Source: Acidimicrobiales bacterium
Lineage (GTDB): Bacteria; Actinomycetota; Acidimicrobiia; Acidimicrobiales; Microtrichaceae
Length of the DNA stretch: 64,000 bases
Direction: 5' to 3'
Assembly (NCBI GenBank): GCA_046331245.1
Contig: JAXLRH010000002.1
Coordinates: forward strand, 402,587-466,586
Shown here: one piece after another, positions 9,260-62,425 of the stretch
Layout: every line of letters begins with the position of its first letter
Position numbering within the stretch: position 1 is the first letter of the stretch
The notes under the pieces: generated by a model
The model's input: only the letters and a program-made list of their open reading frames with translations
What the model was told of the DNA's origin: nothing
The model's database searches: none
Made by a program: the position numbers and the translations under genes

Positions 9260-11968
9260 ATGACCGACGACGGTTTCCTCCAGCAGCTGCCCGACGTCGA
9301 TCCGGCCGAGACCGCCGAGTGGGTCGACTCGCTGGAGGCCGTGGCCCAGCAGCGGGGCAAGCCCCGGGCCAGCTTCCTCCTCGGCCGCCTCGAGTCGCGT
9401 GCCAGCCAGCTCGGCATCGACAACTCGGGCCTCGTCACCACGCCGTACCTCAACACCATCGCGCCGTCGCAGCAGCCCTGGTTCCCCGGCGACGAGGACA
9501 TCGAGCGGCGCATCCGAGCGTTCATCCGGTGGAACGCGGTCGCGATGGTCATCCGCGCCAACCACGCCGCCGACGGCATCGGCGGCCACCTGTCGACGTT
9601 CGCCAGCTCCGCAGCCCTGTACGACGTCGGCTTCAACCACTTCTTCCAGGGCAAGGACGACGGCAACGCCGGCGACCACATCTACATCCAGGGCCACGCC
9701 GCTCCCGGCATCTACGCCCGGGCGTTCCTCGAGGGCCGCCTCGACGAGCAGCAGCTCGACCGGTTTCGCCGCGAGATCGGGGGCACCGGCCTCACGAGCT
9801 ACCCGCACCCGCGCCTCATGCCGGACTTCTGGGAGTTCCCCACCGTGTCGATGGGGCTCGGTCCGATCAACTCGATCTACCAGGCCCGCTTCAACCGCTA
9901 CCTCCACAACCGCCGCATCGACGCCACCGACGCGTCGCGCGTCTGGTGCTTCGTCGGCGACGGCGAGACCGACGAGCCCGAGACGCTCGGATCGATCGCG
10001 CTGGCCGGGCGCGAGGGTCTCGACAACCTCACGTGGGTCGTGAACTGCAACCTGCAACGCCTCGACGGCCCGGTGCGCGGCAACGGCAAGATCATCCAGG
10101 AGCTCGAAGGCGTGTTCCGCGGCGCCGGGTGGAACGTGGTGAAGGTGATCTGGGGCACGCCCTGGGACGAGCTCATCGCCAAGGACATCGACGGCGCGCT
10201 CGTCGCCCAGATGAACAACACCGTCGACGGCCAGTTCCAGCGCTATGCCGTCGAGGACGGCGGCTACGCGCGGGAGCACTTCTTCGGGCCCGACCCGCGC
10301 CTGCGCAAGCTCGTCGAGCACCTGAGCGACGAGGACATCGCCGCGCTCCCCCGTGGCGGCCACGACTACCGCAAGCTCTACGCCGCCTATCACTACGCCA
10401 CCCACAACTCCACGGGCCGGCCCACGGTCATCCTCGCCAAGACGATCAAGGGGTGGACCCTCGGCAGCGAGGTGATGGGTCGCAACGCCACCCACCAGAT
10501 CAAGAAGATGACGGGCGTGCAGCTGCAGACGCTGCGCGACCGGCTGCACCTCGGCGACCTCATCAGCGACGCCGATCTCGCCGACGGCGAGCCCCCGTTC
10601 GTGCGGCCACCGGACGGCTCGCCGGAGCAGGAGTACCTGTACGCCCGCCGGCGGGCGCTGGGCGGGGCGATCCCGAGCCGGCGCACCACGGCTCGCCGCC
10701 CGATGAGCCAACCCGACCCGGCGACCTTCGCCGAGCTCCTCGCGGGCTCCGGCGGTCAACCCGCCTCCACCACGACCGCGTTCACGCGACTCCTGCGCAA
10801 CCTCGCCCGCGACCCCAACATCGGCGACCGCATCGTGCCGATCGTTCCCGACGAGGCCCGCACGTTCGGCATGGACTCGCTCTTCCGCGAGCTCAAGATC
10901 TACGCGGCGCAGGGACAGAAGTACGAGCCGGTCGACCACCACCTGCTGCTGTCGTACGCCGAGTCCGCCGACGGTCAGATCCTCGAGGAGGGCATCACCG
11001 AGGCCGGCTCGATGGCGTCGTGGACCGCGGCGGCGACCAGTTACGCCGTGCGCGGGGTCCCGATGGTGCCGTTCTTCACCTTCTATTCGATGTTCGGCTT
11101 CCAGCGCGTCGGCGATCTCATCTGGGCGGCCGCCGACGCCCGGGCGCGCGGGTTCCTGCTCGGCGCGACCGCGGGACGCACGACGCTGATGGGCGAGGGC
11201 CTCCAGCACCAGGACGGCCACAGTCTGGTGCTCGCCTCGACCGTTCCGGCGTGCCGCGCCTACGACCCGGCGTTCGCCTACGAGATGGCGATCCTCGTGC
11301 GCGACGGCATCGAGCGGATGTATGGACGCGGCGAGGACGCGTTCTACTACCTGACCCTCTACAACGAGAACTACCCCATGCCCGCGATGCCCGAGGGCAG
11401 CCATCCCGACGAGGTGGCGCAGGGTGTGGTGGACGGGCTCTACCGATGGCTGCCGTCCCCCGGGGACCACGCGCACTCGGCCACGATCCTGTTCTCCGGC
11501 ACGGCGTGGAGCGCGGCGGCCGAGGCGCGCGACGTGCTCGCCGCCGACTACGACGTCGGCGTGGAGCTCTGGAGCGCCACCTCCTACAAGACCCTGCGGG
11601 AGGACGCGCTCGAGGCCGAGCGGTGGAACCGCCTCCACCCCACCGGAGCGAAGCGGGTGCCGATGGTGACGTCGCTGCTGGAGCAGTCCAGCGGACCCAT
11701 CGTCGCCGTCACCGACTTCATGCGCGCCGTTCCCGACCAGGTGTCGCGGTGGTCGCCGCGACCGTGGACCTCGCTCGGCACCGACGGCTTCGGCCGCTCC
11801 GACGACCGCGCCGCGCTCCGCCGCCACTTCGAGACGGACGCGCCCAACGTGGTCGTCTCGGTGCTCGGTCAGCTCGCCGAGGCCGGCGAGATCGACGCCG
11901 ACATCGTGCAGAAGGCCATCGACCGCTTCGGCATCGACGCCGACGCCCGCTCCCCCTGGACCGACTGA
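9260..11968 (+). CDS. aceE: pyruvate dehydrogenase E1 component (homodimeric type)
   Basis: 902 aa. The ThDP-binding and transketolase-like domains are colinear with AceE. Confidence 0.93.
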   Translation: MTDDGFLQQLPDVDPAETAEWVDSLEAVAQQRGKPRASFLLGRLESRASQLGIDNSGLVTTPYLNTIAPSQQPWFPGDEDIERRIRAFIRWNAVAMVIRANHAADGIGGHLSTFASSAALYDVGFNHFFQGKDDGNAGDHIYIQGHAAPGIYARAFLEGRLDEQQLDRFRREIGGTGLTSYPHPRLMPDFWEFPTVSMGLGPINSIYQARFNRYLHNRRIDATDASRVWCFVGDGETDEPETLGSIALAGREGLDNLTWVVNCNLQRLDGPVRGNGKIIQELEGVFRGAGWNVVKVIWGTPWDELIAKDIDGALVAQMNNTVDGQFQRYAVEDGGYAREHFFGPDPRLRKLVEHLSDEDIAALPRGGHDYRKLYAAYHYATHNSTGRPTVILAKTIKGWTLGSEVMGRNATHQIKKMTGVQLQTLRDRLHLGDLISDADLADGEPPFVRPPDGSPEQEYLYARRRALGGAIPSRRTTARRPMSQPDPATFAELLAGSGGQPASTTTAFTRLLRNLARDPNIGDRIVPIVPDEARTFGMDSLFRELKIYAAQGQKYEPVDHHLLLSYAESADGQILEEGITEAGSMASWTAAATSYAVRGVPMVPFFTFYSMFGFQRVGDLIWAAADARARGFLLGATAGRTTLMGEGLQHQDGHSLVLASTVPACRAYDPAFAYEMAILVRDGIERMYGRGEDAFYYLTLYNENYPMPAMPEGSHPDEVAQGVVDGLYRWLPSPGDHAHSATILFSGTAWSAAAEARDVLAADYDVGVELWSATSYKTLREDALEAERWNRLHPTGAKRVPMVTSLLEQSSGPIVAVTDFMRAVPDQVSRWSPRPWTSLGTDGFGRSDDRAALRRHFETDAPNVVVSVLGQLAEAGEIDADIVQKAIDRFGIDADARSPWTD

Positions 11969-22619: not shown

Positions 22620-22699
22620 GGGCGACAGACTGGCCGCCACGATCGGCGACGACAACCCGCTCGGTGTACTCGTGTGTACACACCGACTACCCTGCCTCC

Positions 22700-22978
22700 A
22701 TGGAACGAATCGGCGTCCGTGAGCTCCGTGGTGACCTGGCCGCAGCGGTGAAGCGGGCCGGCGCCGGCGAGCGCATCATCGTGACGGTCGGCGGCGCCCC
22801 CGTCGCCCAGCTCGGGCCGCTCGACGCGGGCGGCGACGGCGTGACCGTCGACGACCTCGTGGCCCGCGGGCTCCTCGTGCGGGCGCGCCGCGACGATCGC
22901 CCTCGCCCCGACTTCGTGATGCCGCTGTGGGCGGGCACCCGCCTCGACCAGCTCGTGCGCGAGGTGCGGGGGCGGTGA
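22700..22978 (+). CDS. vapB: type II antitoxin (Phd/YefM or VapB-like)
   Basis: MERIGVRELRGDLAAAVKRAGAGERIIVTVGGAPVAQL. Its 4-nt overlap with the toxin gene is reported with the vapC call. Confidence 0.7.
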   Translation: MERIGVRELRGDLAAAVKRAGAGERIIVTVGGAPVAQLGPLDAGGDGVTVDDLVARGLLVRARRDDRPRPDFVMPLWAGTRLDQLVREVRGR

Positions 22979-23385
22979 CGATCGCGCTCGACACCACCGC
23001 GCTGCTCGCCCGCTACCTCGACGGGCCCTTCCGGCCCGTCATCATCGACGCGATGGACGCCGACCACGACTGGTGCGCCTCGGCGCTCGCGCTCAGCGAG
23101 GCACTCATGCTGATCGAACAGATCGGCGACGACCCCCGCCGCGCCGACCACCTCCGCCGCGCCCTCCGCGACGACTGGGAGCGCGTGCACGTCGTGCCGG
23201 TCGACCAGCGCTGCCTCGACCGCGCCGCCGAGCTCGGGCGCACCCAGCCGCTCCGCACCGTGGACGCGCTCCACCTCGCGGCCGCCGATCGGCTGCCGAG
23301 GCCGGTGCGGTTCGCGACGTTCGACCCCGCCCAGATCCCGGTGGCGATGTCGCTCGGGTTCAGCGTCGTGTCGACGCCGGCCTGA
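22975..23385 (+). CDS. vapC: PIN-domain toxin VapC
   Basis: GTG start overlapping the antitoxin stop (GTGA). IALDTT...E...D...D acidic PIN tetrad. Confidence 0.75.
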   Translation: MTIALDTTALLARYLDGPFRPVIIDAMDADHDWCASALALSEALMLIEQIGDDPRRADHLRRALRDDWERVHVVPVDQRCLDRAAELGRTQPLRTVDALHLAAADRLPRPVRFATFDPAQIPVAMSLGFSVVSTPA

Positions 23386-43749: not shown

Positions 43750-44178
43750 ATGGCTCACGTGCGTTCGGCAATCCTCTGCGACTTCGCCCAGGTACGAGAG
43801 GGCCTGCTGTTCGTGTCGTCCGGCGGCATCACCCGCATCGCGGCGCCCGGCATCGGCGCCCCCGTCTCGTTCTCCGTCGCCGGCGAGCTCGAGGTGCTCC
43901 CACTCGAGGCCGGCTCGACCCACGAGGTCGCCTTCAAGGTGTCGGCCGTCGAGACGTCCACCACGGTGTGGGAGGCCACGCTGTCCATCAGCACGAGCAG
44001 CTCGCCCGACGGGTTGTTCCCCGGCGAGAGCCTGCACGTGCCGTTCGCGTTCCCGGTCGGGCCGTTCGCCGCGGAGACCTTCGGGCCGCACGACCTGAAG
44101 GTGAGCATCGACAACGCCGAGACCGAGCTGCTGACCTTCTACCTGCTGCAGATGGTCACCAACGAGGACCTCACCTGA
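43750..44178 (+). CDS. hypothetical protein
   Basis: 142 aa, coding-like composition, no recognisable domain. Confidence 0.5.
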
Positions 44179-44193
44179 CCAACCCCCCCCACC

Positions 44194-44246
44194 CCGGTTT
44201 CGGGGGTTCGTTGTGCGCGAGGGTGCACAACGAACCCCGAAACCGG
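44194..44246. repeat. palindromic element copy A: CCGGTTTCGGGGGTTCGTTGTG-cgcgagggtg-CACAACGAACCCCGAAACCGG
   Basis: 21/22-bp near-perfect inverted arms with a 10-nt spacer, between convergent genes. Flanked by a C8 run upstream and (CGGGAA)3 downstream. Confidence 0.7.
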
Positions 44247-44279
44247 AGAAATGGGGAGCGGGAACGGGAACGGGCGGCG

Positions 44280-45032
44280 CTAGTCCGCGAAGGTCCAGCG
44301 CACCTCGACGGTGACCGCCGTCTGCACCTCGCCCGCCTGGATGGGCGTGGCCGCACGGTCGGCCTGCGCCGCGTAGGCCAACGGCGTGGACACCGGCGGC
44401 GTCGTCGTGTCGGTCTGTGAGATCGACACGACCTGACCGAGCTTGCGGCCCGACAGCTTCGCGAACTGCTCGGCCTTCTTCCTGGCGTCGGCGAAGGCCT
44501 TGTCGCGGGCTCCGGCGAGGGCGGCCTCGTCGTCGTCGAGGCGGAACGACACCCCCGACACGACGGCGTCGGAGCCACCGGCGGCGGTCGCCGCGTCGAT
44601 GACGGCGCCCACCTTGTCGACGGCGCGCACCTTGGCGATCACCTGGTTGGAGACACGGAAGCCGTCGGCCACCGGACCGGAGTCGGGGTACCGGAACTCC
44701 TGGTTGATCGAGTAGTTCGTGGTCTGCACGTCCTTCTCGGCGACGCCCGCCGCCTTCAACGCGTCGATGAGCTTCGTCGCCGACGTCGCTGCGTCGTTGA
44801 TCGCCGCCGGCGCGGTCGGCCGCTTGACCGACACGCCGATCGAGACGGACACGGTGTCGGGCACGCCGCTCACCTTGCCGGTGCCGGACACGACGATGCC
44901 GTGCTGGGAGCCCGAGGGATCGTTGGTCACGTTCACGACCGGAGCCTTCCCCGTCGACTGGCCGGAGCATCCGACGGCGACGAGCGCCAGGCCGGCGAGG
45001 CCGACGGAACAGACGGTGCGGATTCTGGACAT
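44280..45032 (-). CDS. SIMPL-domain (DUF541) lipoprotein
   Basis: Lipobox LVAVGCSG. SIMPL-like body. Confidence 0.8.
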   Translation of the reverse strand: MSRIRTVCSVGLAGLALVAVGCSGQSTGKAPVVNVTNDPSGSQHGIVVSGTGKVSGVPDTVSVSIGVSVKRPTAPAAINDAATSATKLIDALKAAGVAEKDVQTTNYSINQEFRYPDSGPVADGFRVSNQVIAKVRAVDKVGAVIDAATAAGGSDAVVSGVSFRLDDDEAALAGARDKAFADARKKAEQFAKLSGRKLGQVVSISQTDTTTPPVSTPLAYAAQADRAATPIQAGEVQTAVTVEVRWTFAD

Positions 45033-45099: not shown

Positions 45100-45912
45100 T
45101 CAGAGGCCGAGCGGATCGGCGAAGGGATCGGCGAACGGGTCGTCGGCGGCAGCCACGGCAGCCGGCGCGTCGTCCCCTCCGGCCTCCTCCACCCACCGGG
45201 CGTAGCCGCTCTCCTCCAGCGTCTCGGCGAGCTCCGGCCCGCCCGACTCGAGGATGCGGCCCTTGGCGAAGATGTGCACCACGTCGGCGTGCAGCTTCTC
45301 GAGGAGCCGGTTGTAGTGGGTGACCGCGATCACGCCGAGGCCCCATTCCGAGGTGGCCTCCTCGACGCGCTGCGACACCTGCGCGAGCGCGTCCACGTCG
45401 AGGCCGGAGTCGATCTCGTCGAGGATCGCGAACTTCGGGCGGAGCACGGCGAGCTGCAGGGTCTCGTTGCGCTTCTTCTCGCCACCGGAGAAGTCGACGT
45501 TGAGGGAACGGCTGAGGAACGCCTCGTCGAGACCGACGCGCTTCGCCTCGGCCCGGAGGTCGGCATCGAAGGTCGTGCCGGAGCGGTGCTGGGCGGCGAG
45601 CGACTCGGTGAGCACGGACTGGAGCGACACGCCGGGCACCTCGGTCGGGTACTGCATGCCGAGGAAGAGACCGGCCTGCGCCCGCTCGTGGGGCGCCAGC
45701 GCTGCGAGATCCACGCCGTCGAGCAGCATCGAGCCGCCGGTGACGACATAGCCGGGCCGGCCCATGAGCACGTGGCTGAGGGTGGACTTGCCCGAGCCGT
45801 TCGGGCCCATGATCGCGTGCACCTCGCCGCTGCGGACCGTGAGGTCGACGCCGGTGAGGATCGGGCGGCCCGCGACCTCGGCGGTGAGACCGGAGATGAC
45901 GAGCTCGCTCAC
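45100..45912 (-). CDS. sufC: Fe-S cluster assembly ATPase SufC (copy 2)
   Basis: GTG start VSELVISGLTAEV. EVHAIMGPNGSGKSTL, FSGGEKKRNETLQ. GTGA overlap with the Rieske gene. Confidence 0.88.
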   Translation of the reverse strand: MSELVISGLTAEVAGRPILTGVDLTVRSGEVHAIMGPNGSGKSTLSHVLMGRPGYVVTGGSMLLDGVDLAALAPHERAQAGLFLGMQYPTEVPGVSLQSVLTESLAAQHRSGTTFDADLRAEAKRVGLDEAFLSRSLNVDFSGGEKKRNETLQLAVLRPKFAILDEIDSGLDVDALAQVSQRVEEATSEWGLGVIAVTHYNRLLEKLHADVVHIFAKGRILESGGPELAETLEESGYARWVEEAGGDDAPAAVAAADDPFADPFADPLGL

Positions 45913-46238
45913 GACACCACCACCGACACGTCGTCGCCGTCGACGACGACCTCGTACACCGCGACCGGACGCGTCGCCGGCAGCGACGTCGCCTCGCCGG
46001 TCTCGAGGTCGAACCCCGAGCCGTGCTTCGGGCACTCCAGCGTGCCCATGTCGTCGTCCACCTCGCCCTCCGACAACGAGACGTCCTGGTGGCTGCAGCG
46101 GTCGGACAGCGCGTACACCTGGTCGCCGAGGCGCACCACGGCGAGCTCACGGTCGCCGATCACGAACTTGCGGACGCCGCCGTCGACGAGGTCGTCGATC
46201 GTGCACAGCGGGTGCCGGACTCCTGGGGAGACGCTCAT
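45909..46238 (-). CDS. Rieske [2Fe-2S] ferredoxin-like protein
   Basis: CSHQ...CPKHG Rieske boxes, 109 aa. ATGA overlap with sufD. GGAGG RBS. Confidence 0.85.
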   Translation of the reverse strand: MSVSPGVRHPLCTIDDLVDGGVRKFVIGDRELAVVRLGDQVYALSDRCSHQDVSLSEGEVDDDMGTLECPKHGSGFDLETGEATSLPATRPVAVYEVVVDGDDVSVVVS

Positions 46239-47524
46239 CGGGTTCCTCCGAGCTTGGCGGCGATCAACGGACGGACGAGCTCGGCCACGGACGGCACCGA
46301 CACGGCGTCGAGCACCTCCTCGAAGAAACCGTTGACGACGAGCCGCTCGGCCACCTCGGGCGGGACGCCGCGGCTCTCGAGGTAGAAGCGCTGGTCCTCG
46401 TCGATGGGACCGACGGCGGTCGCGTGTGCACAGCGGACGTCGTTGTGGTTGATCTCGAGGTTGGGCACCGACTCGGCCCAGGCGTCGTCGGACAACTTGA
46501 TGACCCGGTTGGTCTGCGTGGCGTTGGAACCACGACCCTCGTGGTCGACCCGGATCATGCCGGTGTAGACGGCGTGGGCACGGTCGTCGAGCGCCCCCTT
46601 GAACAGGAGCTCCGACGTGGTGTCGCGGGCCTCGTGCGTCTGGAACGTGCGGAGGTCGTGCATCTGGTCGTCGTCGCCGAGGTAGAGCGCCGAGAGGCGG
46701 CCCGTGGCCCCCCGCCCGACGAGGCGGCAGTCGAAGCGGTTGCGGGCGTAGGCGCCACCGAGCGCGACGTGGGCCAGCCGAACCGTCGCCTCCTGGGCGA
46801 CGGTGGCGGACAGCGCGCCGAGCTGGTTGGTCGCGCCGCCGAGCGCGTTGACGGTGGTCACGCCGACCCGGGCGGCGGGGGCCACTGCGATCTCGACGCG
46901 GGGCACGACGGTGGCCTCGACGTCGGTCGAGGTCGTCCACTCGACGACGTCGAACTGCGAGTTCTCGCCGGCCACGATCACGAGCCGGTTGAGCACGAGC
47001 GCCTGATCGGCGTCGACGACACCGATCACCTGGAACGGGAGGTCGACCACCACGTTGCGCGGCACGGACAGGAGCAGGGGGTCGACGCCGAACGCGACGT
47101 TGAGCTCGGTGAACGCGTCCACGACGGCGACGTGCTCGCTGCTGCCGACGGTGGCGGCGACCTCGGACCCGCCGAGCTCGTCGGCGGACTCCGACAGGAG
47201 GCCGAAGCGGACGCCGAGCTCGGCGATCTCGGGCGCGAGCTCGGCGCTCACGAGGTGCCCGTTGTGGTGCACGAGGCGGCCGGCGTACTTGCCGAGACCG
47301 TCCGACAGCGTGAGCGCCCCGTCGGGAACGACCTCGGACGTCGCCGGCACGGTGAAGCGGTCGAGCTCGATGTCGCCGACGCGGCTGTAGCGCCACTCCT
47401 CGAGCGAGGGATCGGGCAGCGGCGTCACCGCGAAGCGCTCGGCGGCGGCGACGCGCTGCGCCGTCAGCCAGGCAGGGCCGGGCAGGGAGCTGGCACGTGT
47501 GGGGGTGAATGCGTCGGCAGTCAC
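46235..47524 (-). CDS. sufD: Fe-S cluster assembly protein SufD
   Basis: 429 aa, SufD beta-helix with the conserved C-terminal region. Confidence 0.88.
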   Translation of the reverse strand: MTADAFTPTRASSLPGPAWLTAQRVAAAERFAVTPLPDPSLEEWRYSRVGDIELDRFTVPATSEVVPDGALTLSDGLGKYAGRLVHHNGHLVSAELAPEIAELGVRFGLLSESADELGGSEVAATVGSSEHVAVVDAFTELNVAFGVDPLLLSVPRNVVVDLPFQVIGVVDADQALVLNRLVIVAGENSQFDVVEWTTSTDVEATVVPRVEIAVAPAARVGVTTVNALGGATNQLGALSATVAQEATVRLAHVALGGAYARNRFDCRLVGRGATGRLSALYLGDDDQMHDLRTFQTHEARDTTSELLFKGALDDRAHAVYTGMIRVDHEGRGSNATQTNRVIKLSDDAWAESVPNLEINHNDVRCAHATAVGPIDEDQRFYLESRGVPPEVAERLVVNGFFEEVLDAVSVPSVAELVRPLIAAKLGGTR

Positions 47525-47600: not shown

Positions 47601-48053
47601 TCACTCGGGCCAAGCGTCGAGGATGGCCGTGAACTCGTCGGCGGTGAGCGCCACCGGGCTCGACACCCGCGGCGCCCGCACGATCTCGCACCGGCCGAAC
47701 CGCTCGTCGGCCACGAGCTCGCGCAGCCGCACCGGAGCGTCGAGCAGGTCGAGATCGAGCCCCACCCACGGCTGCTCCGACTCGTTGCGGCTCGACGGCT
47801 GCACGTAGGGCTCGCTCGACACCTCGCCGATCCCCCACACGCCCGTCGTCGGGGCGTTGCGGCCCCCGGTCACCCAGAGCACGCACGGGTGGCCCGGGTG
47901 CACCAGGTCGACGCGGTAGTTGTCGACCATCGGCCACGCGTCGATGGGCTCGCCGGCGCGGATCGCGCCGACCACGTCCCAGACGACCGGATTGGCCTTG
48001 AACAGCCACGCCGCGACCTCGGTGCCGTCCCGCAACCGGGCGACGGGTTCCAT
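47601..48053 (-). CDS. EVE (PUA-like) domain protein
   Basis: 150 aa with EVE-fold hallmarks (WLFKANP..., conserved W/Y positions). Confidence 0.75.
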   Translation of the reverse strand: MEPVARLRDGTEVAAWLFKANPVVWDVVGAIRAGEPIDAWPMVDNYRVDLVHPGHPCVLWVTGGRNAPTTGVWGIGEVSSEPYVQPSSRNESEQPWVGLDLDLLDAPVRLRELVADERFGRCEIVRAPRVSSPVALTADEFTAILDAWPE

Positions 48054-48066
48054 CGACGCGATGACG

Positions 48067-48447
48067 TCAGCCCCGACGGAACCAGCGACGCCAGCCGCGC
48101 TGGTCGCCGCCCGGGCGGCCGGGCCGGAACCCCGACGTGTCGGGACGGGTGGCGTCCACCTCGGCCCGCGTGCGCTCGACGGCGGCGTTCACGATGTTCT
48201 CCGCCTCGTCGAGGAGGTCGCCGATGGACGGATCGACCCCGACGCTCGCGGGCTCGGCCGGCGTCGGCGGAGCGATCAGCGAACCGTGCGACCAGTTCAC
48301 GTCCGCGAGGCGCGGCTGATAGGCGGGGCAGTTGTCGGGGCAGCGCCACGGCGCCTCCGGGGCGAGGTCGAGGTCGCATTTCCGCACGGACTCACCCGTG
48401 GGATAGGTGCGGCTCTCGTAGAACTTGCATCCCTCGCGCATCGGCAT
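48067..48447 (-). CDS. small Cys4 protein of unknown function
   Basis: MPMREGCKFYESRTYPTGESVRKCDLDLAPEAPWRCPDNCPAY carries a C-x16-C-x11-C-x3-C pattern. Ends 13 nt upstream of the EVE gene. Confidence 0.55.
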   Translation of the reverse strand: MPMREGCKFYESRTYPTGESVRKCDLDLAPEAPWRCPDNCPAYQPRLADVNWSHGSLIAPPTPAEPASVGVDPSIGDLLDEAENIVNAAVERTRAEVDATRPDTSGFRPGRPGGDQRGWRRWFRRG

Positions 48448-48469
48448 CGAGCCATTGTAGGTTTGCGCG

Positions 48470-48853
48470 ATGCCCTCCCTCGGATCGCCCCGCTACGTCC
48501 TGTTCACCAACTTCCGGAGGAACGGGACGCGGGTGTCGACGCCGGTGTGGTTCGCGCCGCACGGTGACACGTGGGTGTTCTCGACCGCGCCGGATGCCGG
48601 CAAGGTGAAGCGGCTCCGCAACAACCCGGCGGCCGAGATCGCCGCCAGCGACGTCCGGGGTCGCGTGAAGGAGGGCTCCCCCACCTTCACCGGCACGGCA
48701 CGACTGCTCGACGCCACCGAGACCGCTGCGGCCGAGCGCGCGCTGGCCGCGAAGTACGGACTCCAGTGGAAGGCGCTGCGCCTCAGCGAGCGGGTGCGCA
48801 ACCTCGTCGGCATCAAGGCCGACGCCGCCTACATCTCGGTCACGCTGGACTGA
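48470..48853 (+). CDS. PPOX-class (pyridoxamine-5'-phosphate-oxidase fold) probable F420-dependent enzyme
   Basis: 127-aa split-barrel PPOX pattern (YVLFTNFRRNGTRVSTPVWF...). Confidence 0.7.
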   Translation: MPSLGSPRYVLFTNFRRNGTRVSTPVWFAPHGDTWVFSTAPDAGKVKRLRNNPAAEIAASDVRGRVKEGSPTFTGTARLLDATETAAAERALAAKYGLQWKALRLSERVRNLVGIKADAAYISVTLD

Positions 48854-48857
48854 GCGC

Positions 48858-48881
48858 GAGGCTCAGCCGACGCTCCCCTCC
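48858..48881. repeat. tandem duplicate of the sufB 3' terminus (encodes -EGSVG-stop again)
   Basis: GAGGCTCAGCCGACGCTCCCCTCC matches CAGGCTCAGCCCACGCTGCCTTCC at the true sufB end about 58 nt away, about 20/23 identical. Confidence 0.45.
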
Positions 48882-48920
48882 ACCCGCCCACGCCACCCCA
48901 CACGGAGTGGCTTCGCAGGC

Positions 48921-50318
48921 TCAGCCCACGCTGCCTTCCATCTGAAGCTCGATCAACCGGCTCCACTCCACCGCGTACTCCATGGGGAGTGTGCGGGTGA
49001 TCGGCTCGATGAAGCCGTTCACCACCATCGACATGGCCTGCTCCTCGGAGAGGCCACGGCTCTGCAGGTAGAACAGCTGCTCGTCGGCCACCTTGGAGAC
49101 GGTGGCCTCGTGGCCGATCACCGCGTCCTTCGAGCCCACCTCCATGTAGGGGTAGGTGTCCGAGATCGACTCGTCGTCGAGGATCAGGGCGTCGCACTGC
49201 ACGTGTGAGCGGCAGCCGTACGCACCGTCCTCGATGTGGACGAGGCCGCGGTACGACGTGCGGCCGCCGTCCTTGCTGATCGACTTCGACACGACCTTCG
49301 ACGTCGTCTCGGGCGCGGCGTGCACCATCTTGGCGCCCGTGTCCTGGTGCTGGCCGGGGCCGGCGTAGGCGACGGAGAGCACCTCGCCCGAGGCCTTCGG
49401 TCCGACGAGCGTGCAGCCCGGGTATTTCATCGTGAGGCGGCTGCCGATGTTGCCGTCGATCCACTCCATGTGGCCCTCGGCCTCCACCCGCGCACGCTTG
49501 GTGACGAGGTTGAACACGTTGCTCGACCAGTTCTGGATGGTCGTGTACGTGACACGCGCCGACGGCTTCACCACGATCTCGACCACGGCCGAGTGCAGCG
49601 AGTCCGACGTGTACACCGGGGCGGAGCACCCTTCGATGTAGTGCACCTCGGAGCCCTCGTCAGCGATGATGAGCGTCCGCTCGAACTGGCCCATGTTCTC
49701 CTGGTTGATCCGGAAGTAGGCCTGCAACGGCATCGGCACCTTCACGCCCGGCGGGACGTAGATGAACGAGCCGCCCGACCACACGGCCGTGTTGAGCGAG
49801 CTGAACTTGTTGTCGTTGAGCGGGATGACCGTGCCGAAGTACTGCTTCACGAGCTCGGGGTACTCGCGGAGCGCCGTGTCCATGTCGCAGAAGATGATGC
49901 CGAGCTCGGCGAGGTCCTCGCGGTTGCGGTGGAACACCACCTCGCTCTCGAACTGCGCGGTCACGCCGGCGAGGTACTTCCGCTCCGCCTCCGGGATGCC
50001 GAGCTTCTCGTAGGTCGACTTGATGGCGTCGGGCAGGTCGTCCCAGCTGTCGACCTGATGATCGGTGGGCTTGATGTAGTAGTAGATGTCGTCGAAGTAG
50101 ATCTCCGACATGTCGCCGCCCCAGCGCGGCATCGGCCGCTTCTCGAAGGCGGTGAGCGACTTGAGGCGACGCTTCAGCATCCACTCGGGCTCGTTCTTCA
50201 TCTGCGACATCTCGCGGACCAACGCCTCGTCAAGGCCCTTCTTGGGCTTGAAGACGTAGTCGACGTCGTCGTTCCAGCCGAGCTGGTACTTGCTGAGGTC
50301 GAGATCGATGCTGGTCAT
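48921..50318 (-). CDS. sufB: Fe-S cluster assembly protein SufB
   Basis: Inner start [15 protein letters not shown]. The remainder is colinear with SufB. The ORF-table N-terminal 47 codons lie in the leader/repeat region. Confidence 0.92.
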
Positions 50319-50434
50319 GGCACTCCAATCGGGGGGAGAGCCGACGCCTCGCCGGGGCCGGGAATATCTCCTACGTGCATAGTAACAACCCCAACCCGCG
50401 CACGACCACCGGTGTTCCCGCCCACCTCTCTCGC

Positions 50435-50486
50435 GGTTTTTGGGGTTCGTTGTGTTCACCCCTCGCGCACAACGAACCCCAAAACC
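50435..50486. repeat. palindromic element copy B (inverted relative to A): GGTTTTTGGGGTTCGTTGTG-ttcacccctcgcg-CACAACGAACCCCAAAACC
   Basis: 19/20-bp arms. Its reverse complement is about 90% identical to copy A including the spacer. It lies in the sufB leader, about 115 nt upstream of the sufB ATG, just after the upstream gene stop. Confidence 0.7.
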
Positions 50487-50521
50487 CGAGGAGGAGGAGT
50501 GAGGAGTGAGGACGAGGAGTG
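50487..50521. repeat. purine-rich heptad tract (GAGGAGT-like x5)
   Basis: GAGGAGGAGGAGTGAGGAGTGAGGACGAGGAGTG between palindrome B and the stop of the gamma-carbonic-anhydrase-like gene. Confidence 0.5.
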
Positions 50522-51040
50522 TCAGTCGACGCGTCGGAGCTCGAGCTTGTAGCGGGCGGCGCGATCGACGTAGCTCTGCACGCCGAGGTCGAACCAGCCG
50601 GGCGTCACGGCGTTCTCGCGGATGGTGATCGGCACGCCGAGCGCCATGGCGAGGGGCGGGATCACCTTGCGGTTGGGCACCATCGCGTTGGCGCCGATGA
50701 CCGCCTCGGCGCCCACCACCACCTCGTGCAGCACCACCGAGCCCGAGCCGACGAGCGCCTTGTCCTCGATCGTGCAGCCCTCGAGGTGGACGTTGTGGCC
50801 CACCGTCACCTCGTTGCCGATGCGGGTGGGATGGAAGAACGTGGTGTGCACGATCGTGCCGTCCTGCACCGACGACCGCTCGCCGACGTAGATGAAGCCG
50901 TCGTCGCCGCGGAGCACCGCCGTGGGCCAGATCGACGAGTGGGCGCCGATCACGACGGAGCCGATGATCACCGCGTCGGGGTGCACGTAGGCGTCGGGAT
51001 GGATGTCGGGAACCTGGTCACCCAGGGCGTAGATCGGCAC
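50522..51040 (-). CDS. gamma-carbonic-anhydrase/hexapeptide-repeat family protein (PaaY/CaiE-like)
   Basis: Left-handed beta-helix hexapeptide repeats, 172 aa. Confidence 0.85.
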
Positions 51041-51047
51041 GGTGGCG

Positions 51048-51551
51048 TCAGTCGACCGGGCCGAGCTTGCCGTAGCTGCCCTTGAAGAACAGCAGCGGTC
51101 CGTGCTCCGAGTTGTCGACGCCGAGGCCCCGCACCCGCCCGATCACGATGTCGTGGTCACCGCCGTCGTAGACGTGCTCGAGCGTGCAGTCGATGTGGGC
51201 GATGCAACCGTCGAGCTTGGGGCCGCCGGTGGCGACGGCCGGCGTCCAGTCGAGGCCCTCGAACTTGTCGTCCATCTTCGAGGAGAACTGCCCCGACACC
51301 GGCACCTGCGCGTCGGACAGTACGTTCACCACGAAGTGACCGGCGCCCTTGATGAGCGCCCACGAGCTCGACTGCTTGCCGACGCAGAACCCGACGAGGG
51401 GCGGGTCGAGCGACACCGAGAAGAACGAGCCCACTGCGAGGCCGGCCGGCTTGCCATCGGTGACCGCGGCGACGACGGTGACGCCCGTCGGGAAGTGGCC
51501 GAGCACCTTGCGGAACTCGGCGGAGTCGATGGCGATGGCTTCGTCGGACAC
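51048..51551 (-). CDS. flavin reductase (NAD(P)H:flavin oxidoreductase, HpaC-like)
   Basis: FRKVLGHFPTGVTVV...split-barrel flavin reductase domain. Confidence 0.85.
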   Translation of the reverse strand: MSDEAIAIDSAEFRKVLGHFPTGVTVVAAVTDGKPAGLAVGSFFSVSLDPPLVGFCVGKQSSSWALIKGAGHFVVNVLSDAQVPVSGQFSSKMDDKFEGLDWTPAVATGGPKLDGCIAHIDCTLEHVYDGGDHDIVIGRVRGLGVDNSEHGPLLFFKGSYGKLGPVD

Positions 51552-53052: not shown

Positions 53053-53139
53053 TGTCGTTCAACCACGGACTACCCGCCACGACCTCCGGCGAGACGGTCG
53101 GGGGTTCGTTGTCGGTGGTCACCACTAGTGTCTGCACCC

Positions 53140-62334: not shown

Positions 62335-62344
62335 CCGCCGTCCT

Positions 62345-62394
62345 GTTTTGTACCTCGGATCGACCGGCGAGCCGGTCGATCCGGGGTACAAAAC
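62345..62394. terminator. 50-bp near-perfect palindrome between convergent genes: GTTTTGTACCTCGGATCGACCGGC-ga-GCCGGTCGATCCGGGGTACAAAAC
   Basis: 24-bp arms with a single mismatch, 10 nt after the acyl-CoA dehydrogenase stop. It shares the GTTTTG/CAAAAC termini with palindromes A and B but has a different core. Confidence 0.55.
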
Positions 62395-62425
62395 GAGGGT
62401 TGAGCGGGGGTGGGTCGGGCGCGGC

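Follow-up and report, generated by a model that had tools for sequence, protein, structure and literature searches.

Extended palindromic intergenic elements past stop codons in a member of the Acidimicrobiia, with a possible role at transcript ends

Two hairpin elements beside the suf genes

We analyzed a 64 kb stretch of DNA with 71% GC (from contig JAXLRH010000002.1 of assembly GCA_046331245.1; hereafter the window), in which two palindromic intergenic elements, A and B, lie beside a suf operon. All counts of elements within this genome refer to these 64 kb. The host is an uncultured member of the Acidimicrobiia, and the best matches of its SufB are metagenome-assembled genomes (MAGs) of Acidimicrobiales and Microthrixaceae, at no more than 94% identity; its SIMPL protein is identical to that of an Acidimicrobiales MAG in NCBI. 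The window is an ordinary housekeeping region. On the minus strand, the locus runs from a flavin reductase gene (51048-51551, -) and a hexapeptide transferase gene (50522-51040, -) through sufB (48921-50318, -; ATG at 50318), three small inserted genes, sufD (46235-47524, -) and sufC (45100-46035, -) to a SIMPL gene (44280-45032, -), which faces a convergent DUF6941 gene (43750-44178, +).

Element A (44179-44279, +) fills the entire spacer between the stops of the DUF6941 and SIMPL genes and is made up of a C-rich tract (44179-44195), a hairpin (44195-44247) and a G-rich tract (44248-44279). The arms of its hairpin, CCGGTTTCGGGGGTTCGTTGTG / CACAACGAACCCCGAAACCGG, contain a single bulged G, and the loop region, CGCGAGGGTG, pairs further and ends in a GAGG tetraloop. 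Element B (50400-50521, -) is homologous to A once it is read on the minus strand, where the hexapeptide-transferase stop is followed by a 34-nt C/U-rich tract, a hairpin (50434-50487; GGTTTTTGGGGTTCGTTGTG-TTCACCCCTCGCG-CACAACGAACCCCAAAACC) and a G-rich tract. Its stem is a perfect 17 bp (TTTTGGGGTTCGTTGTG / CACAACGAACCCCAAAA) closed by a 13-nt loop. The hairpin of B is separated by 34 nt from the hexapeptide-transferase stop and by 116 nt from the sufB ATG.

Both hairpins contain the same invariant 13-bp core helix, in which 44203-44215 (+) pairs with 44226-44238 (-) in A and 50442-50454 (+) with 50468-50480 (-) in B. All four arms are identical (GGGGTTCGTTGTG / CACAACGAACCCC), and these are the only four exact occurrences of GGGGTTCGTTGTG in the window. 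With up to two mismatches allowed, six matches were observed against 1.4 expected, a number that none of 100 shuffles reached. The spacing between the arms differs in the two copies (10 versus 13 nt). Both elements fold on either strand, at -57.7 to -61.5 kcal/mol (z = -3.4 to -5.7), and both have a T-run 5' of the stem and an A-run 3' of it (TTT(T)-stem-(A)AAA). An earlier reading of this DNA from its letters alone (the sequence-only reading) had reported two palindromic elements at these positions, with TTTT-stem-AAAA polarity and with copy A between two convergent stops. All of this was recovered here, and folding both strands, which it had proposed as a check, returned very stable hairpins.

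Aligning A (+) with B (-) gave a local score of 81 across ~81 nt, compared with 46 for the same-strand alignment, and a blastn comparison of A with reverse-complemented B gave 84% identity over 75 nt (E 3e-13). Identity across the hairpin alone is 82%. The relatedness of the two copies and the inversion of B had thus been read correctly from the letters, whereas the identity of about 90% claimed for them was too high (82-84%). The homology is not confined to the 52-bp hairpin but takes in ~25 nt of flanking sequence to either side, and reverse-complementing B brings the loops into register (CGCGAGG-GTG versus CGCGAGGGGTGAA). Taken together, the alignments support the view that A and B are homologous, oriented elements and not hairpins that evolved independently.

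The divergence between the two copies is unevenly distributed. The core helix is identical at 26/26 positions, whereas the other aligned columns agree at 37/61 (~39% diverged), and the chance that the 13 core pairs would remain unchanged at the rate seen outside the core is ~0.0015. In an alifold model of A and B, all 26 pairs are kept in both copies (52/52 cells). Beyond the core, compensatory changes occur twice: a C-G pair is replaced by U-A in the main stem, and an A-U pair by U-A in an outer flank helix. This pairing comparison rests on two sequences, and the compensatory changes are not statistically strong. The stem looks maintained between A and B, and its center looks constrained in sequence as well, or else homogenized by conversion.

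A possible solitary arm, TCGGGGGTTCGTTGT, lies at 53098-53112 (+) in the divergent spacer between a Lactamase_B_2 (metallo-beta-lactamase-fold) gene and an N6/N4 DNA methylase gene, and is identical to the left arm of A at 15/15 positions. We considered it as a third copy and kept it as marginal: it is one arm with no partner, has an E of ~0.04 and is not conserved in L041, one of the relative loci described below.

A wider family and its gain past stop codons

Two more elements in the window share the architecture of A and B. Element C (62335-62425, +) has a different stem (GTTTTGTACCTCGGATCGACCGGC / GCCGGTCGATCCGGGGTACAAAAC), a near-perfect palindrome with 24-bp arms (fold z = -6.1 and -7.0), and fills the spacer between the convergent stops of an acyl-CoA dehydrogenase gene (+) and an unknown gene (-). 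Element D (1420-1526, -) consists of a C-rich tract, GTTTTGGGG, a GC-rich imperfect palindrome, AAAAC and a G-rich tract, and lies directly past the stop of a dihydrolipoamide-dehydrogenase-like gene (1527-2939, -). C (+) and D (-) align over 57 nt, among them CAAAAC(G)AGGG(T)TGAG..GGTGGG, with a score of 34 that exceeds those of all 3000 random window segments and all 2000 shuffles. Similarly, a covariance model built from A and B matched C (26 bits, E 9e-5).

D, A, B and C are all built in the same order: a C-rich/G-poor tract, then GTTT(T), a GC stem-loop, (A)AAAC and finally a G-rich/C-poor tract. GTTTT occurs three times in the window (1450, 50436 and 62345), as does AAAAC (1511, 50481 and 62390), always at elements and with AAAAC 45-61 nt after each GTTTT. 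Together with A, in which the corresponding motifs read GGTTTC...GAAACC, this amounts to five GTTT...AAAC pairs at four loci, where ~0.16 would be expected given 11 and 13 occurrences, and a single pair has the reverse order. The flanks are strongly skewed, with 14 C and 1 G upstream of hairpin A (+), and 20 G and 3-6 C over 31-36 nt on the 3' side of A, B and C. All four elements begin 0-34 nt past a stop codon (n = 4).

The G-rich tract is often G-quadruplex (G4)-capable. There are six canonical G4 motifs in the 64 kb, three of which abut D, A and C. The motif GGGGAGCGGGAACGGGAACGGG (44253-44274, +) lies directly 3' of hairpin A and, read on the minus strand, is the C-rich, G-poor tract that leads from the SIMPL stop to the hairpin; another (62397-62419, +) lies in element C. 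Five of the six (1366-1390, 1502-1525, 44253-44274 and 62397-62419 on the plus strand, and 48875-48899 on the minus strand) are in gene-end or gene-start spacers. One of these five lies directly past the sufB stop, on the mRNA strand.

Judged by these comparisons, A and B are one subfamily of lineage-specific, extended palindromic intergenic elements of ~90-120 bp, with at least four members in the window (D, A, B and C). The two additional elements of the same architecture strengthen the idea of a dispersed family, which the sequence-only reading had based on A and B.

The suf locus could be compared with six independent relative loci (L015, L016, L041, L042, L043 and L045). These keep parts of the gene order flavin reductase, hexapeptide transferase, sufB ... 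sufD, Rieske, sufC, (SIMPL) and DUF6941, with the part from the hexapeptide transferase gene to sufB in L015, L016, L041 and L043, and the part from sufC to DUF6941 in L015, L016 and L045. The A/B arms were absent, at up to two mismatches, from nine relative loci (L015-L019 and L041-L044), and the covariance model from A and B had no match in the relative loci. The SIMPL and DUF6941 stops are 2 bp apart in L045, compared with 101 bp in the window, and sufC and DUF6941 are ~20 bp apart in L015 and L016; with spacers this short in the relatives, the entire A spacer is a gain. The spacer between the hexapeptide transferase gene and sufB measures 73-135 bp in L015, L016, L041 and L042, compared with 203 bp in the window, and the excess corresponds to B and its flanks. 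At orthologous sites, A is absent from L045, L015 and L016, and B from L015, L016 and L041-L044. The flanking genes have kept their stop codons and C-termini intact beside the insertions. A and B are each a lineage-specific gain of ~100 bp directly past a stop codon.

In L043 and L044, the spacer past the hexapeptide transferase gene is also 203 bp long, and the hairpin found at the corresponding position past the stop (CCGGGCGCC-tgttc-GGGTGCCCGG) is unrelated. That two lineages independently gained a hairpin past this gene argues for repeated selection, and for a hairpin being useful there. L043 (GCA_012510615.1) additionally carries an element of the same style at 9517-9566 (GTTTTGCTACCGGAAATGGCCCC-tcag-GGGGCCATTTCCGGTAGCAAAAC), past the sufB stop between convergent genes. 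This palindrome has perfect 23-bp arms (GTTTTGCTACC...GGTAGCAAAAC), is followed by a direct repeat (AACTGGTGCGGGAT x2), and resembles element C in its outer stem. No element of this style was found in the other relatives, of which 7-21 kb each were sampled.

Several candidates were rejected on the basis of the relatives. The GTTT...AAAC pairs at L045 13378 and L043 7006 are unstructured coincidences inside coding sequence. A hairpin travelling with the SIMPL gene was discarded, as L045 has SIMPL at the same place without a hairpin. The same holds for a role of the inverted A/B pair in recombination or inversion: the suf block has an unchanged gene order and orientation in relatives without the elements, and no recombinase lies nearby.

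Between B and the sufB start codon, outside the element, lies the motif GTTGTTACTATGcaCGTAGGAGATATT (GTTGTTACTATG-NN-CGTAGGAGATATT; 50363-50389, -). In an alignment of seven sequences of the hexapeptide-sufB spacer (the window, L015, L016 and L041-L044, of which L043 and L044 are duplicates in this spacer), GTTGTTACTATG-NN-CGTAGGAGATATT is the only invariant part. It lies 45-70 nt upstream of the sufB start and reads TTACTA-N9-TAGTAA in L016. This conservation points to a probable suf promoter, or to an operator at which an Fe-S-responsive repressor would bind; there is no sufR gene next to it. Since the motif is invariant and B lies upstream of it, B is better called the 3' flank of the upstream gene than a proven sufB leader. 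The earlier placement of B after a gene stop stands, but its placement inside the sufB leader is not established.

Across the whole window, Rfam gave no match at the gathering threshold and, at E<=10, only generic miRNA-precursor hairpin models far below threshold. This agrees with the sequence-only reading, which had recognized no named repeat family and had suggested this search. Exact-arm scans with GGTTCGTTGTG N4-30 CACAACGAACC covered 185,579 species-representative genomes, the JGI metagenomes, IMG/VR and PLSDB. No further Acidimicrobiia copy of the A/B arms was found in the 185,579 genomes or the JGI metagenomes, and the viral (IMG/VR) and plasmid (PLSDB) scans gave no match. A literature search for palindromic intergenic repeats in Acidimicrobiia likewise found none.

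A possible function at transcript ends and its alternatives

We give an about even chance to the interpretation that the elements are a TRIT/REP-like family (REP, repetitive extragenic palindrome) of 3'-end stem-loops lacking a U-tract. They would act as factor (Rho)-dependent bidirectional transcript-end modules or as exonuclease blocks, and would have spread by duplication or insertion. The sequence-only reading had considered a repeat element more likely than a terminator. The repeat part of this claim holds, but the contrast itself is a false dichotomy, as all four elements lie past stop codons. Because of this position, and because U-less 3' stem-loops are normal in Actinobacteria (PMC13613805), a function at transcript ends seems the likeliest. 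In Actinobacteria, the stem-loops at 3' ends are long-stemmed, frequently have no U-tract and show the highest Rho-dependency scores (PMC13613805).

Read from either side, an element would give rise to a stem-loop of >20 bp without a U-tract, and canonical intrinsic termination would not be expected. As the plan is palindromic, transcripts arriving from both directions would meet the same order of parts, namely a stop codon, a C-rich/G-poor tract and a long hairpin. The element would thus form the 3'-end structure of the upstream gene or genes, in which the C-rich tract could serve as a Rho loading (rut-like) site, and the hairpin could both signal a pause and block 3'->5' exonucleases. B would insulate the regulated suf promoter from the upstream operon (hexapeptide transferase), and A and C would separate convergent genes. 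The family may have spread by REPIN-like transposition in trans, or by local duplication or conversion. RhoTermPredict (tool paper PMC6407284), as summarized in 10.1101/2022.06.01.494293, describes a Rho terminator as a rut tract with C>G that is followed by a palindrome. A C>G tract is indeed present upstream of the palindrome in the elements, over 10-35 nt only.

The family is probably the Acidimicrobiia analogue of TRIT of Mycobacterium, and a further case of TRIT/REP-like gene-end palindromes rather than a new mechanism. In M. tuberculosis, TRIT comprises 147 palindromic, gene-end-associated copies, which are bidirectional and without a canonical U-tract (PMC3152330). TRIT overlaps few mapped 3' ends in M. 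tuberculosis (10.1101/2022.06.01.494293), and its function is unsettled. Like TRIT, the elements of the window are conserved, repeated palindromes at gene termini (n = 4) that are restricted to a lineage and occur in a high-GC actinobacterium, and the conserved stem suggests a factor. Unlike TRIT, whose centers lie ~8 nt inside coding sequence, they start past the stop codon; they number four (two with the A/B arms) in 64 kb, compared with 147 copies; and neither the U-run/A-run clamp nor the C-rich and G4 flanks are described for TRIT. The range reported for TRIT is Mycobacterium only (PMC3152330), outside which the host lies, and Rfam gave no match. With the U-less 3' stem-loops of Actinobacteria (PMC13613805), the elements share a long GC stem, the lack of a U-tract, an upstream C-rich/G-poor tract and a position past stop codons; those stem-loops, in contrast, are generally unique sequences and not repeated families. 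Compared with the model of a U-less stem-loop or Rho terminator, the rut-like tracts of the elements are short, and the downstream G4-capable tract and the U/A clamp are additional.

Several points weigh against a function at transcript ends. The polarity of a U-run 5' and an A-run 3' of the stem has no role in established termination models; in one simple reading, intrinsic termination at the hairpin is prevented by the A-run that follows the stem. The RNA preferred by Rho is normally unstructured, and in length the C-rich tracts fall short of a typical rut site, as well as of the 78-nt window used by RhoTermPredict. The invariant core, which shows no covariation, hints at sequence-specific recognition or gene conversion, neither of which a plain hairpin needs. 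The fold of element D is no better than that of shuffled sequence, and the family itself amounts to four members in two sequence subfamilies within the 64 kb examined. Finally, transcription through the elements, transcript 3' ends at the hairpins, the involvement of Rho, the protection of 3' ends and the mode of spread are all predicted from the DNA and its comparison.

The elements might instead be selfish non-autonomous mobile DNA, similar to REPINs or to miniature inverted-repeat transposable elements (MITEs), moved in trans by a RAYT (Y1) or another transposase encoded elsewhere. They would then have no host function, and their position past stop codons would reflect tolerated insertion. 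We consider this possible but doubtful. In its favor are the two homologous copies 6 kb apart in opposite orientations and the varying presence of A and B at orthologous sites among relatives, a polymorphism that they share with MITEs and other mobile DNA; moreover, stems flanked by A and not by U would keep an inserted element from ending transcription. The architecture, two inverted arms with a short spacer that form a long extragenic hairpin, resembles that of REPs and REPINs, which likewise occur in both orientations, often at gene 3' ends, and with lineage-specific sequence (PMC3116915; PMC3337134). The elements differ from these in lacking a GTAG-type 5' tetranucleotide, and the arms of B are not convincing REP-type palindromes themselves. 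REPs and REPINs typically number in the tens to hundreds within one genome, which also encodes a cognate RAYT, usually with REPs on its flanks; the 64 kb contain two copies of the A/B type and four elements of the wider architecture. A Pfam scan of the 50 predicted genes of the window detected no transposase, RAYT or integrase domain. The element is a palindrome along its entire length, and no direct repeat indicative of a target-site duplication was recognizable at the borders of A or B, which could not be fixed because the spacers of the relatives are too diverged. The difference of ~16-18% between A and B speaks against a recent burst, and no copy was found in the other sampled genomes or metagenomes. 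REPs and REPINs are best known from Proteobacteria, and we know of no example in Acidimicrobiia. A selfish origin would in any case be compatible with a host function, which many REPs have.

A more elaborate version of the transcript-end function, which we regard as unlikely, would make the elements an undescribed, modular, self-propagating bidirectional terminator of some Acidimicrobiia. It would combine a C-tract for Rho loading, a U/A-clamped hairpin, a G4 that stalls RNA polymerase and a factor that reads the core helix, and would have been recruited to insulate operons such as suf.

The invariant core raises the alternative of a protein-binding site, on DNA or double-stranded RNA, at the GGGGTTCGTTGTG helix. 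This would be either an insulator or regulator bracketing sufBDC-SIMPL, or the site of a termination or processing factor that binds double-stranded RNA. The perfect identity of the core next to a ~39% diverged remainder speaks for such a site; A and B do bracket the suf block, the possible solitary arm at 53098-53112 lies in a divergent promoter region, and Gardner et al. proposed a factor binding double-stranded RNA for TRIT (PMC3152330). We nevertheless think it improbable. The unequal spacing of the arms fits a dimeric DNA-binding protein poorly, and C and D lack the core sequence despite the common architecture. The conserved suf control motif of the relatives lies elsewhere, and the relatives regulate the same operon without the elements. 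The solitary arm, for its part, is marginal and not conserved.

Ordinary intrinsic (Rho-independent) bidirectional terminators are very unlikely. A symmetric hairpin between convergent genes, with flanking A and T runs, is indeed what a canonical bidirectional terminator looks like, and the gene-end positions and very stable stems are consistent with it; a consensus scan also flagged small sub-hairpins (CCCCGGTTTCGGGG) followed by U-containing GTTCGTTGTG. Such a terminator, however, has a U-rich tract of 7-9 nt right after its GC-rich hairpin. In the elements the T-run is 5' and the A-run 3', so that no U-tract closes either transcript, and behind the full stems comes A-/G-rich sequence, GAAACCGGAG / AAAACCCGAGG on the plus strand and GGGGTGGGG / AAAAACCGCGAG on the minus strand. 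The flagged sub-hairpins measure 5-6 bp, have weak tails and find no support in B (+), and terminator-like sites in the region are not in excess of shuffles (5 versus 3.4). Actinobacterial RNA polymerase needs a U-tract, as the purified mycobacterial enzyme, with or without NusA and NusG, did not terminate at hairpins that lack one (PMC3993855). The sequence-only reading had doubted a canonical intrinsic terminator for the same polarity, and was right to do so.

Lastly, B might be a cis-regulatory RNA in the sufB leader, such as an attenuator that responds to Fe-S or redox state, with A similar to it by coincidence. The position of B 116 nt upstream of the sufB start codon would suit this, but it is highly improbable given that B is missing from the relative sequences with the same operon (L015, L016 and L041-L044), that B lies upstream of the only conserved spacer motif, that its homologue A is found between convergent stops at the opposite end of the operon, and that Rfam gave no match.

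Termination in high-GC Actinomycetota is poorly understood, and canonical terminators are rare there. TRIT, found in Mycobacterium only and without a mechanism, is the one known sequence-conserved gene-end motif in this group, and a second palindromic gene-end family, unrelated to TRIT and in an uncultured, distant class, would suggest repeated origin. With their reversed U/A polarity, C-rich and G4 flanks and invariant core, the elements are compact and testable: they could terminate, pause or protect transcripts, and a factor could read the stem. They also matter for the annotation of operons and 3' untranslated regions in MAGs, and can break assemblies.

Cross-phylum matches and other features of the window

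Outside the Acidimicrobiia, the exact-arm scans matched 14 genome loci and 21 metagenome loci (35 in total). These include multi-copy palindromes in Chloroploca/Oscillochloris, a Thermoanaerobaculia MAG, termite-gut-type contigs, Rothia, Microbacterium and a Solirubrobacterales MAG. A motif conserved across phyla was rejected, as conservation ends at the borders of the search pattern and no neighboring protein is common to the lineages. Palindromes with 11-bp arms occur 28 times per 64 kb in the window, nine times the number under a Markov model. At this density, tens of chance matches are expected in 596 Gb, and the 35 loci were thus not taken as relatives.

Three groups of these matches deserve a description of their own. 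The Solirubrobacterales MAG (L002, 1700-1840) contains tandem related hairpins, GGTTCGTTGTGGTCGC... and GGTTCCTTGTGGACGC..., downstream of the end of an SDR-like gene, and its flanks, CCCCGCCCCGG... and ...GAAAGCCGG, resemble those of element A. As the sole cross-phylum locus with flank similarity, it may be truly, if distantly, related to the A/B subfamily. In Chloroploca/Oscillochloris and in related metagenome contigs (L001, L003-L005, L010, L012-L014, L025 and L039), a multi-copy hairpin reads TTTTT-GGTTCGTTGTGGCGGC-loop-GCCGCCACAACGAACC-AAAAA. It has the same reversed T/A polarity, and one of its copies precedes a start codon by ~20 nt and is conserved at the orthologous site of three species. 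The third group (L022, L024, L026, L027, L029, L030, L033, L034 and L037, from metagenome Ga0268261 and others) consists of ~100-bp near-perfect palindromes, ACATGCAGTCTCTGGTCCCGTGTGGTGCTTGGTTCGTTGTG..., on many short contigs of 36-46% GC. Their frequent location at the ends of contigs suggests an abundant foldback repeat at which assemblies break.

Within the suf operon, the gap between sufB and sufD carries variable cargo. In the window (47601-48853), it holds a PNPOx-like gene on the opposite strand, an unknown open reading frame and an EVE-domain gene, and the cargo of the relatives includes a PAS-GGDEF gene (L015 12146-14040; L042 1899-3432). The gap is a hotspot of gene turnover within an essential operon. 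Elsewhere in the window, a small open reading frame (22664-22978) precedes and overlaps a PIN-domain gene (22927-23385), and the two are probably a VapBC-type toxin-antitoxin pair.

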